From a virus (Duplodnaviria; Heunggongvirae; Uroviricota; Caudoviricetes), in the IMG/VR virus record IMGVR_UViG_3300042009_000026, positions 1 to 64,000 of that record: a stretch of 64,000 nucleotides of DNA. The stretch is one strand, 5' to 3'. The notes below the pieces were generated by a model. The model was not told the DNA's origin. It did not search any database and saw nothing but the letters and a program-made list of their open reading frames with translations. The position numbers were made by a program, and so were the translations under genes. Below are positions 54,332 to 63,375 of this stretch, piece after piece; positions within the stretch are counted from its first letter, which is position 1; every line of letters begins with the position of its first letter.

Positions 54332-55660
54332 TTAACCTTTTACGCAGAGAATTTGTTTGAGGGTATGGACAACGTCCACAAGTTCGGCTTGAGCTGACAT
54401 TACGTCATCGATGTTCTTGTAAGCCTTTGGTGTTTCATCGAGTACGCCAATATCTTTACGGCATTCCACACCAGCGGTATCACGGATGTGATCTTCCAGA
54501 GTGAACACTTTCTCAGCTTGAGTACGGGACATTACACGACCTGCTCCATGCGAACACGAGCAGAACGATTCACGTTGACCTTTACCACGAACGATGAAAG
54601 ACTTAGCGCCCATCGAACCAGGGATGATCCCGAGAGTACCTTTGTCGGCGTTTACTGCACCCTTACGCGTTACCAGGACGTTCTGACCGAAGTGACGTTC
54701 TTCTGATACGTAGTTGTGGTGACAGTTGATTGCAGACATGTCCGAATCGATTGGCAGACCCAAGGTCTTGTGGATAGCACCCAGAGTAGCATGCATCATG
54801 ATTGAGCGATTGAGTGCAGCAAACCGTTGTGCCCAGGACACTGCTTCGATGTAATCATTGTAATACACGGAACCTTCTGGTAGATAAGCAAGATCACCAT
54901 CTGGTAGGTGAATGAAGAAACGTTTCATTTCTTCTTTTGCTTTCGCGATGAAGTACGTACCGATGGCATTACCGATACCACGAGAACCGGAGTGCAACAT
55001 TACCCAAACCTGATCGGTTTCATCCAGACAGATTTCGATGAAGTGGTTCCCTGTACCGAGCGTACCTACGTGGTTCCATGCCCGAGCTGCTGCTTTCGAC
55101 AGCTTAGGATGACGCTCTACAATCGAGGACAAATGCTTACGTAGCTTCTCTGCTTCGTCACGGATCTCTTTGACCTGGTGATCGAATACGTTTACTTTAC
55201 CAAATGCACCACGGTCGTTAGGGCCACCGTTGTCAGTGCGGCCATGAGGCACTGAGGCTTCGATAGCGGCGCGCAAATGACCCAGAGACTCAGGTAGTGC
55301 TGTGGACTTAAAAGTAAGGCGCTGTGCAGCCATACCGCATCCGATATCAACACCTACTGCGGATGGAATGATCGCACCTTTGGTGGCAACCACAGAACCA
55401 ATGGTGGCACCTTTGCCCAAGTGTACATCAGGCATCACAGCGATGTGTGAGTAGATGAATGGAAGAGCGGCAATGTTCTTCAATTGCTGGATTGCTTCTT
55501 TTTCGACTGGTACGCCGACGGTCCAGCCTTTGATTGGTTTCGAACCTTCTTCTACGGTATCACCAATCAGTTCAAATGTTTTCTGTTTCATAAAAGCCTC
55601 ACGCGGATGGAAAGAGGAATTGTTACATACACTGACTTTGCCAGTATTATTAAACGGCAT
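54332..55660 (-). CDS. rtcB: RNA-splicing ligase RtcB (3'-phosphate/2',3'-cyclic phosphate RNA ligase)
   Basis: MHSGSRGIGNAIG (GTP-binding), metal-binding His/Cys-rich segments, CHHNY; 442 aa. Confidence 0.85.
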   Translation of the reverse strand: MPFNNTGKVSVCNNSSFHPREAFMKQKTFELIGDTVEEGSKPIKGWTVGVPVEKEAIQQLKNIAALPFIYSHIAVMPDVHLGKGATIGSVVATKGAIIPSAVGVDIGCGMAAQRLTFKSTALPESLGHLRAAIEASVPHGRTDNGGPNDRGAFGKVNVFDHQVKEIRDEAEKLRKHLSSIVERHPKLSKAAARAWNHVGTLGTGNHFIEICLDETDQVWVMLHSGSRGIGNAIGTYFIAKAKEEMKRFFIHLPDGDLAYLPEGSVYYNDYIEAVSWAQRFAALNRSIMMHATLGAIHKTLGLPIDSDMSAINCHHNYVSEERHFGQNVLVTRKGAVNADKGTLGIIPGSMGAKSFIVRGKGQRESFCSCSHGAGRVMSRTQAEKVFTLEDHIRDTAGVECRKDIGVLDETPKAYKNIDDVMSAQAELVDVVHTLKQILCVKG

Positions 55661-56461: not shown

Positions 56462-57382
56462 TTACTTCAAGAAAGTACCACAGCTAGCTTGAACATCTGT
56501 ACCCACACGTGGGATAACCTTCACTCGTGTCTCTGGCAAACGATTACGGATATAACCAGCCAGATAATGAATCTGTCCTTCCACTGTTTCTTTCGACCAG
56601 TGGCCTGCCGGTGGGTTATATCGAACGACGTTCCAGTTTACACGTAGACCTATTTCTTCTATTTCGTCAATGATCGCCTTAACGTCTCCTAAAGAATCGT
56701 TTTGGTCATTAATGAAAGCATAATGGATCTTTGGTGTTTTACCGGTAACCTCTTGCCAACGCTTGAGTTCATCCAAAGCAGTAATAGGTGAACTGGCTTT
56801 AGGTAGCCACTGTTTACGAAACTGTGGATTCATACTGTACGCCGAATAGTACAGCTCAGGATACACGTCTGAGTCAGTGAAGACATCAGTTAGACGAGTA
56901 TAGCCAAAGTCCTTAGGCCAGATGGTGGAGATCAAGAACTTTGCCTCAAGCCCCCATTCTGCAGCCATTCGTTTAAGACCCCTGAGGATCTCATCGGCAT
57001 TCTCGATGAAGTGTTTGTTAGCCAGTGGTTCGCCACGTGCCATGAAGTTAAAATGAACACGCTTAGCTGGACCGTGGACAGGATCATTGCGAATGACTTC
57101 GGTGTAATGATCGAATACTCGCTCAGCTTGTTCGAAGTATTCTTTCATGGTTACATCACGTGTATCTGTTTGGCCAGTGGCCGTCAGCCAACACATCCGG
57201 CAAGCTTGTTTACAGCCTGTTTGAGACGACAAATAAACAATGAAGTAATCTTCTACCCGTCTAACAAAACGTGCCTCTAGCATCCCTGCGTGATCTTCAA
57301 AGCGGTGTTCGAAGTTAACTGATTGGTCGAGTTGAGAAACGTGTTGCTTAAAGATGAGTTCTGGCATTACCGTACTCCGCAA
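56462..57382 (-). CDS. Radical SAM enzyme, RlmN/Cfr-like (RNA adenine C2/C8 methylating family), N-terminally truncated relative to RlmN
   Basis: SSQTGCKQACRMCWLTATG (CxxxCxxC), C-terminal ...TDVQASCGTFLK matching RlmN second Cys motif. Confidence 0.7.
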   Translation of the reverse strand: MRSTVMPELIFKQHVSQLDQSVNFEHRFEDHAGMLEARFVRRVEDYFIVYLSSQTGCKQACRMCWLTATGQTDTRDVTMKEYFEQAERVFDHYTEVIRNDPVHGPAKRVHFNFMARGEPLANKHFIENADEILRGLKRMAAEWGLEAKFLISTIWPKDFGYTRLTDVFTDSDVYPELYYSAYSMNPQFRKQWLPKASSPITALDELKRWQEVTGKTPKIHYAFINDQNDSLGDVKAIIDEIEEIGLRVNWNVVRYNPPAGHWSKETVEGQIHYLAGYIRNRLPETRVKVIPRVGTDVQASCGTFLK

Positions 57383-57762: not shown

Positions 57763-57840
57763 TGGTGCCGACATTCGGAATCGAACCGAAGACCTACCGC
57801 TTACAAGGCGGTTGCTCTGACCTAGCTGAGCTATGTCGGC
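57763..57840 (-). tRNA. tRNA-Thr (anticodon UGU), CCA encoded
   Basis: Manual cloverleaf: acceptor GCCGACA/UGUCGGC, loop CUUGUAA, T-loop UUCGAUU. Confidence 0.8.
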
Positions 57841-57841
57841 A

Positions 57842-57928
57842 TGGAGCTAAGAGAGGGATTTGAACCCCCGATGATCTTTCGAAACAGGATTTGCAATCCC
57901 GTGCATTCGTCCACTCTGCCATCTCAGC
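57842..57928 (-). tRNA. Type-II (long variable arm) tRNA with anticodon GCA (Cys codons) - atypical
   Basis: Manual fold: acceptor GCUGAGA, 3-bp D stem, anticodon stem CGGGA/UCCUG loop UUGCAAA, 15-nt variable arm, T-loop UUCAAAU, U73, CCA. Confidence 0.55.
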
Positions 57929-57935
57929 TTTAATT

Positions 57936-58023
57936 TGGCGGAAGCATAGAGATTCGAACTCTAGGGGCTGTTACACCCGACGGTTTTCAAGACCGTTGCC
58001 TTAAGCCACTCGGCCATGCTTCC
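57936..58023 (-). tRNA. tRNA-Ser (anticodon UGA), type II, CCA encoded
   Basis: Loop CUUGAAA, D-arm GCC-GAGUGGCUUAA-GGC, long variable arm, G73. Confidence 0.8.
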
Positions 58024-58038
58024 TGTGTTGCTTTTGTT

Positions 58039-58124
58039 TGGTGCGGACAGAGAGACTCGAACTCTCACGCCCTAAGGGCGCTGGAACCTAAATCCAGTGC
58101 GTCTACCAATTCCGCCATGTCCGC
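58039..58124 (-). tRNA. tRNA-Leu (anticodon UAG), type II
   Basis: Loop UUUAGGU, D-loop AAUUGGUAGAC, A73 CCA. Confidence 0.75.
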
Positions 58125-58130
58125 TGTGTA

Positions 58131-58215
58131 TGGTGCCCGAAGCGAGATTCGAACTCGCGATCCTGAAAGGCGGGAGATTTTAAGTCTCCAGTGTATGCCG
58201 CTCCACCATTCGGGC
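58131..58215 (-). tRNA. tRNA-Leu (anticodon UAA), type II
   Basis: Loop CUUAAAA, stem GGAGA/UCUCC, long variable arm, CCA. Confidence 0.7.
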
Positions 58216-59164
58216 GTGTAACTAAATTCATTCCCAGCATCCAGGATTCATGCCCTGGTTATCTGCTTATGCAGTGTAGATCGCCGCTGGGCGAGCTTTT
58301 CATCCTAGTACATAGCCTCGACTAAAATCGAAACCGGCGAGCTAGGTCTATCTACGTACTTGCCTACAACGCTTCAGTGTGATGGAGGGCAAGTAAAAGA
58401 ATCGAGGGAACCCGCTACACGCTTTGCTTAGATGGTGTTTAAACCAAATGCCGAGTAGCTCATTCCATGGGTGTATTCTAGTATACACGCAACTGCCTTT
58501 CAGCCGTCTCGTCGATTACCAGTCGCAACTGGTTCTCTGTGTATGGCCCAGTAGCCTCTTTACGGGAGTCATCTACTGGGAAGGTTACCACTACAGGACT
58601 TTCACCTTCTGTGGCCTGGCATTCCAACCAGTTCATGTAACCAAGACGGAATTGACTAATCCGTTGTAGCCGAGTCATCACGCTTCTTCGGTATGGGCGC
58701 CTTAATAATCAGGACTATCCGATCTTTGGGGTATTTGGGGTACGGGCATCGAGTTTCCCTGTTATTCCACTATTCTAGTCTTTTGTGGAACGTCATTGGG
58801 TATTATTCGTAGATCCATACAAGTGCAACTCTGCGCCCTAGTCTGAGGATTAATCAGACACCTGTATAGATCCGAGCCTATCCCTTTCAGGCTAGGACTT
58901 CACCAAGTCAATGGACTCAGTGTATGTGGAAGTTTGATGGAACGATCCTCTACCTTCATCTATTCGGACTCAGGCGACCTTTTCAGCACAGTGGGGTGGA
59001 GTGCACTTACCCAACATCCTGCCATGTCTTTCACATGCTTGTTGAAAAAGATGTAACGATCTAACCTCTTAACGCTAGTCGGCAGCTTTCCCGATTCACG
59101 CAACCTTTACCGAACACTGGAGGCAACTACCTTACCCAATATCCGAACATCTTATTCATACGCT

Positions 59165-59839
59165 TTATTCGTGCGTAGTAGACAACTCAGAGATGATGCA
59201 GATCGAACCATCTTCAACCAGTGTGGTATCGGAGTAATCAATCTGATTGTAAACACCACCATGGAATTGGAAAGTTCTATCTTTCCATGTGCTATCTAGT
59301 TTCAGCACTGGGCAGACCGACTTACGTCCATCACAAAGTACTGATACCGAAACGGAACCAGCAGCTGTGACATGTAAGCTAATCTTGAATGGTACACCTA
59401 ATGGAACGTCTTCCAGCAGCGTAAAGTTATTTATGATTGCGTCAATGAAGTTACTACGGAAACCAGCTGTGATTCTTCCTTTATTCCAGAAGACTTTCAG
59501 TGGCGGAGTAGTTGCATTCTTGACATGGACTTGTGCAATCACCACTTTCTGTGCCGAGTTAACTTTAGTAACAGTCATCGACTGGCGAGACCAGTGGTGT
59601 GGTGCGCTAGTAAGAGACCAATAGGCTGGTTCTTTCCATTCGCATCGTGTGCGGTGTGTACTTTTGCTGGACGCCCCTAATGTGGGCGCAGAGAGTTGAA
59701 TAGATCCATCTTCTAGTTGACTAACCACTTCTGGGCATTGAATCAAGGCTTCCGAACCCATGAGTTCCAATGCAACCGGGTTCTCTTCAGATACCGGCAA
59801 TGGTGTAGCGATCAAATAGTTACTGATGTCAACGAACAT
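59165..59839 (-). CDS. hypothetical protein (224 aa)
   Basis: ORF. Confidence 0.55.
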   Translation of the reverse strand: MFVDISNYLIATPLPVSEENPVALELMGSEALIQCPEVVSQLEDGSIQLSAPTLGASSKSTHRTRCEWKEPAYWSLTSAPHHWSRQSMTVTKVNSAQKVVIAQVHVKNATTPPLKVFWNKGRITAGFRSNFIDAIINNFTLLEDVPLGVPFKISLHVTAAGSVSVSVLCDGRKSVCPVLKLDSTWKDRTFQFHGGVYNQIDYSDTTLVEDGSICIISELSTTHE

Positions 59840-62110: not shown

Positions 62111-62527
62111 TTATGAATTAATTGCATTGATGTAGAACATGTCAAATCGTTCTGTACCCATTGGACTAATCGAATAGAACCCTGCTTCAATACGGTCGTG
62201 TTCTTCTCTGTGGCAGTTCGCACAGAGTAATAGACATTTGTCTAATTCTACTTTTATTCGATCAAAAGATTTTGTTCCACCCGATGTACTGATACCGAAT
62301 TCCTTTTCATCTGGATCAGCATGATGGAATTCAAGAGCACTTGGATTAGAACAGTATCCGCAATCGTTGCACGCGCCGCCTTTATATTCAATCGATAGAA
62401 CTTTTAATTTCCTGCGTCTATCGCTTACGGCTATGGACATGCATTTCATACAACGCCATTTAATTTGATTACCTGCACGGAAAGATCTGTATGTTACCAT
62501 TCCGTGGACTTTACATTCTTTCTGCAT
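62111..62527 (-). mobile_element. HNH homing endonuclease carrying the INS C-terminal tail (ends ...MFYINAINS)
   Basis: CNDCGYCSNPSALEFHHADP...LLCANCHREEH (HNH); C-terminal AINS. Confidence 0.65.
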
Positions 62528-62579: not shown

Positions 62580-62664
62580 TGGCTCCGAGAACTGGGTTCG
62601 AACCAGTAGTGACTATGTCGCACGGTTAACAGCCGTGTGCCTTACCAATTCGGCGCATCTCGGA
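62580..62664 (-). tRNA. Type-II (long variable arm, Ser-like D-arm, G73) tRNA with anticodon GUU (Asn codons) - atypical
   Basis: Manual fold: acceptor UCCGAGA, D-arm GCC-GAAUUGGUAA-GGC, stem CACGG/CCGUG loop CUGUUAA, 13-nt variable arm with GAC/GUC stem, T-loop UUCGAAC, CCA. Confidence 0.55.
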
Positions 62665-62986: not shown

Positions 62987-63060
62987 ACGCCCCTACCGGA
63001 TTTGAACCGATGACCAATGGATTATTAGTTCACTGCTCTACCAGACTGAGCTAAGGGGCG
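62987..63060 (-). tRNA. tRNA, anticodon uncertain (apparent AAU, Ile-reading if A34 modified); no encoded CCA
   Basis: Acceptor CGCCCCU/AGGGGCG, D-arm GCUC-AGUCUGGUAG-AGC, loop CUAAUAA with one A-C mismatch in anticodon stem, T-loop UUCAAAU. Confidence 0.5.
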
Positions 63061-63064
63061 ACAA

Positions 63065-63148
63065 TGGTGGATGAAGGAAGGAATTGAACCTCTAGGAGAA
63101 CCGGCGGGGTTACAGGCCGCTGACGGTAGCCATCCGTCTCTACATCAT
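63065..63148 (-). tRNA. tRNA-Tyr (anticodon GUA), type II, A73, CCA encoded
   Basis: Stem GCGGC/CCCGC loop CUGUAAC, long variable region, T-loop UUCAAUU. Confidence 0.65.
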
Positions 63149-63375
63149 CCGTATCAGCAGCAGCCGGTCCACCCGGTCATGAGGTTTTAACTCTTCTGTG
63201 CTGATAGTAAAACATTTGAAATTAACTTTGGAGAAAGGCGACTCGTTTTATCTCCTGACTTGTACCCATGCACCCATTATTGGATTGTCTAATAGACTTT
63301 CCAATGATCCACCGGGCGGCTCCTTTAATGTGGACCGGGCTGTACCTTACCGTCGTTGTAAGTTAATTTCAAAAC

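Follow-up and report, generated by a model that had tools for sequence, protein, structure and literature searches.

Gene and predicted fold

The DNA analysed here, referred to below as the window, consists of the first 64,000 nucleotides of the IMG/VR virus record IMGVR_UViG_3300042009_000026 (Caudoviricetes). It belongs to a large phage of about 45% GC, which is related in patches (~83% identity) to the ~305-kb Pseudomonas syringae phages D6, Psa21 and RVTF4. At positions 57842–57928 of its minus strand it carries a gene for tRNA-Cys with the anticodon GCA, 87 nt long including an encoded CCA, which was identified both by ARAGORN and by the Rfam tRNA model. The variable region of this tRNA is 15 nt long. 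According to the textbook description, long variable arms are found only in tRNAs for leucine, serine and selenocysteine (Sec) and in the tyrosine tRNAs of bacteria. An initial annotation of the window had read the gene as a body of the Leu/Ser/Tyr/Sec class carrying a foreign anticodon. The analysis described below supports its description of the shape, but not the inference that it drew from the shape.

ARAGORN predicts tRNA-Cys(gca) at exactly these coordinates, with a 7-bp acceptor stem, a 3-bp D stem (GCA/UGC), an 11-nt D loop, and a 5-bp T stem closed by the loop UUCAAAU. The register found by Infernal with Rfam model RF00005 is identical, with all of model positions 1–71 matched and a score of 54.1 bits (gathering score 29, E = 1e-9). 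The fold proposed by hand in the initial annotation, with a 3-bp D stem, a 15-nt variable region, a canonical T arm and the anticodon loop UUGCAAA, is thus reproduced by both programs, which place it on the minus strand; the assignment to a type-II shape with a GCA anticodon is also correct as judged by the length of the variable region. Neither program offered an alternative register with a Leu or Ser anticodon at 57842–57928, and there was no pseudogene call. The Rfam model for tRNA-Sec (RF01852; UCA anticodon, 8/5 arrangement of the acceptor and T stems) was outscored here by the general tRNA model, which ranks first within its Rfam clan, and the anticodon is GCA. The minimum free energy fold of the single sequence is not a cloverleaf (z = −0.82), a result that is uninformative for tRNAs and is no argument against a tRNA.

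Read 5′ to 3′ on the minus strand, the first part of the gene is GCUGAGA UG GCAG AGUGGACGA AUGC A CGGGA UUGCAAA UCCUG UUUCGAAAGAUCAUC, and the remainder is GGGGG UUCAAAU CCCUC UCUUAGC U CCA. All of the following elements are on this strand. In the ARAGORN drawing the 5′ strand of the acceptor stem (GCUGAGA, 57922–57928) pairs with the 3′ strand (UCUUAGC, 57846–57852), with one G4·U69 wobble. All seven acceptor pairs are kept in 32 out of 32 aligned long-arm tRNA-Cys sequences, with several pair types at each. The D arm (57903–57919) is formed by the pairs G10–C25, C11–G24 and A12–U23 and ends in a G13·A22 mismatch, with A14, G15, G18 and G19 in the loop. The anticodon arm CGGGA-UUGCAAA-UCCUG occupies 57885–57901 according to both ARAGORN and Infernal; the anticodon itself is at 57892–57894 (ARAGORN anticodon position 35; TGC on the plus strand) and reads UGC and UGU. 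The inner stem and loop of this arm (GGAUUGCAAAUCC) are the same as in E. coli tRNA-Cys.

The variable region, UUUCGAAAGAUCAUC, lies at 57870–57884. We define it as standard positions 44–48, which gives 15 nt; ARAGORN shows 14 nt since it pairs A26 with U44. Its last base, C48, is able to form a Levitt pair with G15. Within it is a hairpin at 57874–57883, which, numbered along the gene, consists of a U46·U55 mismatch, the pairs U47–A54 and C48–G53, and a GAAA tetraloop. The T arm GGGGG-UUCAAAU-CCCUC (57853–57869) has 5 bp in both Infernal and ARAGORN, one of them G·U, and is followed, beyond the acceptor strand, by the discriminator base U73 (57845) and the encoded CCA (57842–57844). The universal tRNA positions are all intact, namely U8, A14, G18-G19, U33, the T loop UUCAAAU, the G53–C61 pair and the CCA.

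Identity of the tRNA

The major determinants recognized by cysteinyl-tRNA synthetase (CysRS) are U73 and the GCA anticodon (PMC9976931). The window tRNA has both, with GCA presented in a 7-nt loop that contains U33. U73 is also present in all 54 viral tRNA-Cys from loci with the long pattern described below, and in 94 of the 96 bacterial ones. The identity elements that the initial annotation had proposed to compare with the rules for seryl-tRNA synthetase (SerRS), G73 and the length of the arm, turn out to be U73 and a stem of 2–3 bp, against a median of 6 bp in Ser.

The isotype of the tRNA body was assessed using our own position-weight-matrix profiles for each isotype, rather than tRNAscan-SE, on the 1463 tRNAs found by ARAGORN in all the loci fetched. 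As the pattern used to fetch the loci covers the anticodon, the inner anticodon stem and the T loop, these three parts were masked; the Cys profile was trained on short-loop genes only. In this test 42 of the 45 unique long-arm phage tRNA-Cys score best as canonical Cys, and 39 of the 45 do so when position 73 is left out as well. The window tRNA scores 16.7 as Cys, with Ser second best at 11.5; the scores for the full body are 41.3 and 29.3 respectively.

The D arm is also of Cys type. In canonical phage tRNA-Cys, positions 8 and 9 are U8-G9 in 69 out of 87 sequences, and 82 out of 87 have G·A, A·A or C·A at 13:22, which leaves a D stem of 3 bp. The combination of a 3-bp D stem, G13·A22 and U8-G9 occurs in 52 of the 87. 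In most other class I tRNAs, U8 is followed by A9 and 13:22 is paired. The D arm of E. coli tRNA-Cys is of the same kind as that of the window tRNA.

Direct comparison of long and short forms leads to the same identification. The IMG/VR loci provide a near-isogenic pair: the tRNA-Cys of L013 is 83 nt long with a variable region of 13 nt, that of L156 is 75 nt long with a variable region of 5 nt, and their bodies are 93% identical. A short tRNA-Cys from L136, 78 nt in length with 6 nt in the variable region, is 87% identical in the body to the window tRNA itself. Since near-identical tRNA-Cys bodies exist with and without the hairpin, we conclude that the arm is an insertion or deletion within the Cys lineage. 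By every sequence criterion that can be tested, except the length of the loop, the window tRNA is a tRNA-Cys. The body of the Leu/Ser/Tyr/Sec class suggested in the initial annotation is not supported, given U73, the isotype scores, the D arm, the near-isogenic short tRNA-Cys and the 7/5 arrangement of the acceptor and T stems.

We also considered an origin from tRNA-Tyr through the changes U35C and A73U, in view of the Tyr-like layout of the arm described below. This was rejected, given the Cys-scoring body and the near-isogenic short tRNA-Cys.

The variable arm

At 15 nt the variable region is longer than the 10 nt that we took as the limit for a long-arm shape; the hairpin in it is weak in the window copy, and its stem covaries across the family. 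The window hairpin has two pairs closed by GAAA, with the U46·U55 apposition outside them and then a 4-nt tail, CAUC. No stable fold is predicted for it in isolation. The outer pair is Watson–Crick in the relatives: U–A in D6, A–U in L023 and C–G in L010.

Among the 45 unique long-arm tRNA-Cys from phages, the variable region has a median length of 15 nt (range 10–20) and the stem a median of 3 bp; 18 have a GAAA loop and 24 a GNRA loop. These hairpins are steadier than shuffled sequences, with −2.32 kcal/mol compared to −0.41 ± 0.12 kcal/mol.

Pair counts were made with our own script on the 32 Cys rows of a covariance-model alignment. A covariance model first made from four long tRNA-Cys picked up all the tRNAs in the loci (354 hits), giving an alignment too mixed to be used; a tighter search still held 10 Ser or Leu rows, and the counts were therefore restricted to Cys rows. 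The three pairs of the variable stem are kept in 27/29, 28/30 and 26/29 long-arm tRNA-Cys. Each of the two outer pairs occurs as four to six standard pair types and therefore covaries, while the innermost pair, which closes the loop, is C–G in 24 out of 29. There are only two cases of broken outer pairs, and the window U·U is one of these. Positions 15 and 48 also covary across the 45 long-arm tRNA-Cys (G:C in 18, A:U in 21). This keeps the Levitt pair and bears out the register.

The arm differs in size and layout from that of tRNA-Ser. Phage tRNA-Ser arms have a median of 18 nt and 6 bp, and in 81 out of 94 a single unpaired base precedes the T stem, whereas the Cys arm, of 2–3 bp with a 4-nt tail, is similar in both respects to that of tRNA-Tyr, which has 3 bp and a 3-nt tail.

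Small hairpins of a similar kind are scattered among phage tRNAs of other class I isotypes: Asn (4/44), Trp (3/63), Lys (2/47), Met (2/95), His (2/37) and Thr (3/64). The window itself contains a tRNA-Asn(GUU) at 62580–62664 on the minus strand, which is 85 nt long with a variable region of 13 nt, and has U1–A72 and G73. Its body scores 19.7 as Asn, compared to 11.0 for the next isotype, and its Psa21 ortholog is 88 nt long with a GC-GAAA-GC hairpin.

Distribution in phages and bacteria

Further long tRNA-Cys were sought using an exact pattern consisting of GGATTGCAAATCC, a gap of 14–32, and GGTTCRA. This long pattern occurs in 60 IMG/VR contigs. In 53 of them ARAGORN finds a tRNA-Cys of 81–92 nt, mostly inside tRNA clusters; such tRNAs are common in phage tRNA clusters, a setting from which the initial annotation took none to be known. 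The corresponding pattern with a short gap gave more than 120 matches in IMG/VR, which puts the share of the long form among phage tRNA-Cys at about one third, as an upper bound and for that exact pattern only.

In a BLAST search of the 87 nt against cultured phages, the match was a tRNA-Cys wherever it was annotated. Long tRNA-Cys in isolates include those of E. coli phage EcS1 (87 nt), Caulobacter phage CcrPW (85 nt) and Vibrio phage pv27 (82 nt), and the long form is also present in Pseudomonas phages D6 and RVTF4. For the commonest long variant in IMG/VR, BLAST found only distant cultured relatives with identities of 77.6–79.4%. Almost all of these are short-form tRNA-Cys of Acinetobacter phages, and Yersinia phage MHG19 gives a full-length match of the long form.

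In bacteria, searched with one genome per species, 93 of the 120 matches listed contain a tRNA-Cys of 81–88 nt, with U73 in all but two. Among the 120 matches listed, the long tRNA-Cys come nearly all from Phycisphaerae or other Planctomycetota. In a complete Phycisphaeraceae chromosome the long tRNA-Cys gene lies between secA and a glutamine synthetase gene, and because of this chromosomal position we take the long form to be a cellular tRNA-Cys in Phycisphaerae. There is little conserved synteny around the gene across Phycisphaerae genomes. The phage and Phycisphaerae forms share the D arm and the plan of a GC-GAAA-GC hairpin followed by a short tail. We note as examples from Phycisphaerae and other Planctomycetota the loci L191, L203, L215, L236 and L261, each with a long tRNA-Cys(GCA) that has U73 and a GNRA-capped hairpin; some 90 other genome loci are of this kind. 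In E. coli, a single 74-nt tRNA-Cys is found in 5425 of 5426 genomes, whereas its phage EcS1 carries an 87-nt form.

Genomic context and closest orthologs

The tRNA-Cys gene is part of a tight cluster, Leu(UAA)-Leu(UAG)-Ser(UGA)-Cys(GCA)-Thr(UGU), found by ARAGORN at 57763–58215 on the minus strand with spacers of 1–15 nt; further tRNA genes lie upstream of it. D6, RVTF4 and the IMG/VR contigs L023, L025, L041 and L045 share with the window the conserved order Leu(UAG)-Ser(UGA)-Cys-Thr. The D6 ortholog, which is annotated as tRNA-Cys and stands in the same Ser-Cys-Thr trio, is 92% identical to the window gene, and that of L025 differs from it by one base. Where D6 and the window differ, the change affects an unpaired base (position 9, position 13, the D loop or the hairpin loop) or the outer pair of the variable stem, or it replaces G4·U69 by G–C. 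As far as sequence comparison can tell, this is the substitution pattern of a constrained, functional tRNA.

The neighbours of the tRNA-Cys gene are tRNAs, an HNH endonuclease, an alginate lyase, a radical-SAM protein and RtcB; neither selB*/cysS* nor Sec machinery was found among them. The RtcB RNA ligase (54332–55660, minus strand; 426 bits in Pfam) is encoded just downstream of the tRNA cluster on the same strand, as is the radical-SAM protein (56462–57382, minus strand), which is distant from RlmN/Cfr (56 bits with TIGR00048, for a cutoff of 290). The equivalents of these two genes in D6 and Psa21 are annotated as RtcB and RlmN. Their arrangement suggests a module for RNA repair or modification linked to the tRNA cluster. 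The alginate lyase (59165–59839, minus strand; 133 bits in Pfam) and the HNH endonuclease (62111–62527, minus strand) are interspersed among the tRNA genes, and D6 and Psa21 have HNH endonucleases and a polysaccharide lyase at equivalent positions. Between tRNA-Leu(UAA) and the alginate lyase gene there is a 55-nt match to positions 330–384 of the bacterial 23S rRNA model (58585–58639, minus strand), with 37.7 bits and E = 1e-8, which is below the gathering score.

Other unusual tRNAs in the window and in related loci

The window contains two other unusual genes of this kind, both on the minus strand. The first, at 63065–63150, is a non-canonical gene of 86 nt that resembles a tRNA, with A73 and a GUA (Tyr) anticodon. 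It is missed by ARAGORN, and Rfam gives only a weak tRNA-Sec hit of 23.4 bits. Of the 203 phage records with homologs, 200 are from Pseudomonas phages belonging to several genera; the homologs are mostly unannotated and sometimes called tRNA-Tyr, and the one in PhiPA3 is labelled a pseudo tRNA-Val. Among the 21 pairs in an RNAalifold analysis of seven homologs, 13 show compensatory changes. In this fold the D stem has 5 bp and carries an invariant AUGGCUA loop, and the anticodon loop is CUGUAAC; 31:39 is a C·C mismatch in the window copy. The acceptor and T region may be better read as 8/4 than as 7/5. The second, at 62987–63060, is a tRNA with the anticodon AAU (nominally Ile) in the loop CUAAUAA and a mismatch in the anticodon stem, whose body is ambiguous by isotype score (Asn 29.8, Lys 29.4, Ile 29.4). 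Further anticodons with A34 were seen in related loci: Gly-ACC in Psa21, Ser-ACU in L039, Pro-AGG in L048 and Leu-AAG in L068.

The phage tRNA clusters often also contain tRNAs of 88–95 nt with a UAU anticodon, which make up 15 of the 55 Ile calls and have variable arms of 21–25 nt. Several share CCAGAUUAG in the variable arm, and ARAGORN places their anticodon unusually early, at position 31–33. Examples are L016 4629–4720, L036 1170–1263, L043 3261–3351, L063 4225–4313 and L136 6363–6454. They recall the allo-tRNA(UAU) group of Mukai et al.

Comparison with known tRNAs

The closest known relative of the window tRNA is canonical tRNA-Cys(GCA), for example the 74-nt tRNA of E. coli. The two have in common the UUGCAAA loop, U73, G1–C72, the 7/5 arrangement, U8-G9, a 3-bp D stem with a purine·A mismatch at 13:22, and a nearly identical anticodon arm. 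They differ in the variable region, which has 4–6 nt in the canonical form and 15 nt with a hairpin in the window tRNA, and in the Levitt pair, which is G15:G48 in E. coli and G15:C48 here.

Four other groups resemble the window tRNA in having an extra arm. The selC* tRNA-Cys share U73, a GCA (or UCA) anticodon and a long variable arm, and are cysteinylated by a CysRS (PMC5389517). However, they have a Sec-like 8/4 arrangement with a bulge and longer acceptor and anticodon stems, and in anaerobic bacteria they are associated with selB*/cysS* and Sec machinery, whereas the window tRNA is 7/5 without a bulge and its gene lies in a phage tRNA cluster. A sixth anticodon-stem pair, A26–U44, is possible in the window tRNA, and is insufficient alone to define the selC* family. 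The allo-tRNAs combine a long variable arm with a non-Ser anticodon, and some come from metagenomes and phages (PMC5389517); they differ in being 8/4 or 9/3 and in having a Sec-like long D stem with a tetraloop, as opposed to the 3-bp D stem and 11-nt loop found here. The nev-tRNAs of nematodes have the long-arm shape and an anticodon outside the Leu/Ser set (PMC3333845); they are nematode-specific and have a mismatch between body and anticodon, while in the window tRNA both are Cys. Finally, tRNA-Tyr(GUA) has a similar arm of about 3 bp with a 3–4-nt loop and a 3-nt unpaired 3′ tail, and its anticodon is one base apart; it has A73 and U35, and Tyr is outside the top-scoring isotypes of the anticodon-masked window body.

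The likeness to tRNA-Ser consists of the long variable region, a similar D-arm sequence (GAGUGG...AA) and the second-best body score. Against it stand the larger arm of tRNA-Ser, with its 1-nt 3′ tail, and G73, which is present in 77 of 95 phage tRNA-Ser. On these sequence characters, the window tRNA is not an allo-tRNA, nor a selC* tRNA-Cys, nor a Ser, Leu, Tyr or Sec tRNA.

The literature searched yielded no account of a 7/5 long-arm tRNA-Cys from phages or Planctomycetota, which does not amount to proof of novelty. Orthologs are already present in GenBank with the annotation tRNA-Cys, and the case can be summarized as an unexpected shape in a broad family with a probably ordinary function.

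Proposed function and alternatives

We propose that the gene encodes a functional elongator tRNA-Cys of the phage, charged by the CysRS of the host and reading UGU and UGC, to which we would give a probability of roughly 80%. The proposal builds on the gene and its fold, its identity elements, its Cys-type body, its indel relation to short tRNA-Cys, the covariation in the arm and the wide distribution, all of which are observed; expression of the tRNA, its charging by CysRS and its use in translation are then most likely. The tRNA would be transcribed with its neighbours as part of a polycistronic cluster and then processed out. The host CysRS would charge it with cysteine through U73 and GCA, and the charged tRNA would decode UGU and UGC during infection by this jumbo phage of Pseudomonas type. 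Cys codons make up 13.9 per 1000 in the open reading frames of the window, with UGU and UGC at about 1:1.

The extra arm would on this proposal be a small, usually GNRA-capped hairpin inserted into the variable region of an ordinary tRNA-Cys body. Class I synthetases bind on the minor-groove side of the acceptor stem (PMC7373986), and the arm would be tolerated by CysRS, a class I enzyme, because of this direction of approach. It would be tolerated also because the core of tRNA-Cys, with G9, G13·A22 and the 3-bp D stem, is already like that of a long-arm tRNA. There is a precedent for the charging of a long-arm tRNA-Cys by CysRS in the selC* tRNA-Cys (PMC5389517). We infer tolerance from the binding mode of class I synthetases, from the cysteinylation of selC* tRNA-Cys, and from the presence of the gene on Phycisphaerae chromosomes.

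Several points weigh against this assignment. The margin by which the window tRNA scores as Cys is moderate in our own position-weight-matrix test. The E. coli CysRS is sensitive to the tRNA core, in particular to G15:G48 (PMC9976931), and the window tRNA has G15:C48 in its place. The variable hairpin of the window copy, with its U·U outer pair, is the weakest of its clade. Lastly, U73 is no strong block to SerRS (PMC5389517), so that trace serylation is possible.

An addition to this function, rather than an alternative that excludes it, is that the hairpin is adaptive: by making the phage tRNA-Cys unlike the short form of the host, it could allow the tRNA to escape a tRNA nuclease or other defence, or to be selected by a phage factor. 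We consider this unlikely, while noting several observations that are consistent with it. The hosts of the isolates have the short form, as in E. coli and EcS1; Planctomycetota account for almost all of the bacterial long forms among the matches listed; phage lineages have repeatedly gained or lost the hairpin, and it appears sporadically in phage Asn, Trp, Lys, Met, His and Thr tRNAs. Defences that cut the variable loops or anticodon arms of tRNAs, and phage tRNAs that evade them, are documented (PMC13096335, PMC10264068, PMC11555353), and an RtcB gene just downstream of the cluster would fit a phage that faces tRNA cleavage. On the other side, the link to RtcB is one of proximity only and our analysis identified no nuclease specific for tRNA-Cys; the Phycisphaerae have a cellular gene of the same form, and a defence context is therefore not needed to account for it; and the partly degenerate window hairpin suggests weak constraint. 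We regard as more doubtful still the wider proposal that 7/5 tRNA-Cys with a GNRA hairpin form an undescribed long-arm family, normal in Phycisphaerae and recurrent in unrelated phages whose hosts have the short form, in which the hairpin, seen sporadically in other phage tRNAs too, might be an adaptive mark for escape from defence or for selective handling by the RtcB ligase and the RlmN/Cfr-like radical-SAM protein.

It is very improbable that the gene is a tRNA-like element that does not take part in translation, such as a pseudogene, an anticodon-nuclease decoy or a regulatory RNA. The weak hairpin of the window copy would be compatible with this, as would the odd companions in the cluster, that is, the long-variable tRNA-Asn, the AAU tRNA-Ile and the non-canonical Tyr-like gene. 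However, the universal tRNA positions are intact and the Rfam score is well above threshold; sequence and synteny are conserved with D6, RVTF4 and several IMG/VR contigs; and the substitutions spare the helices except for the outer pair of the variable stem. A decoy, moreover, would not need intact acceptor identity elements.

We give hardly any credence to the idea that the long arm recruits SerRS or another long-arm synthetase, so that the tRNA would insert Ser or another residue at UGU and UGC and be a missense tRNA or a recoder like the allo-tRNAs: the tRNA does have a long variable region and its GCA anticodon is one change from GCU, but the arm is small and Tyr-like in layout, the body is of Cys and not Ser type, and the stems are 7/5 and not 8/4 or 9/3. 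LeuRS and TyrRS depend on A73. This base is found in 28 of 28 phage tRNA-Tyr and 118 of 120 phage tRNA-Leu, whereas the window tRNA has U73 (and C35). In allo-tRNAs either G73 or U73 is compatible with Ser identity (PMC5389517), and SerRS relies on the long arm (PMC7373986); because of that dependence, the small Cys arm is a poor candidate for serylation. Furthermore, the form is conserved in many phages and on Phycisphaerae chromosomes, where replacement of cysteine throughout the proteome would be harmful, and the frequency of Cys codons in the window looks ordinary. The suggestions of the initial annotation that the tRNA might insert Ser at UGY codons, act as a decoy, or be a diverged Ser/Sec-like tRNA or an allo-tRNA are therefore unsupported.

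The most probable reading is thus that of an ordinary tRNA-Cys with an additional arm, and not of a tRNA that mistranslates. A long arm beside an anticodon other than Ser, Leu or Tyr in a phage should not be taken as evidence for recoding. The near-isogenic long and short tRNA-Cys, together with the tractable host of E. coli phage EcS1, provide a clean natural system for studying the role of the variable arm. For the phage of the window itself the consequence is probably modest, namely an extra supply of Cys-tRNA for a large phage. More generally, tRNA-Cys with the usual 7/5 architecture has acquired a small additional arm on repeated occasions, so that CysRS, EF-Tu and the ribosome must tolerate the long-arm shape in several proteobacterial hosts, and the core of tRNA-Cys, with G9 and G13·A22, appears to be pre-adapted to a long arm.

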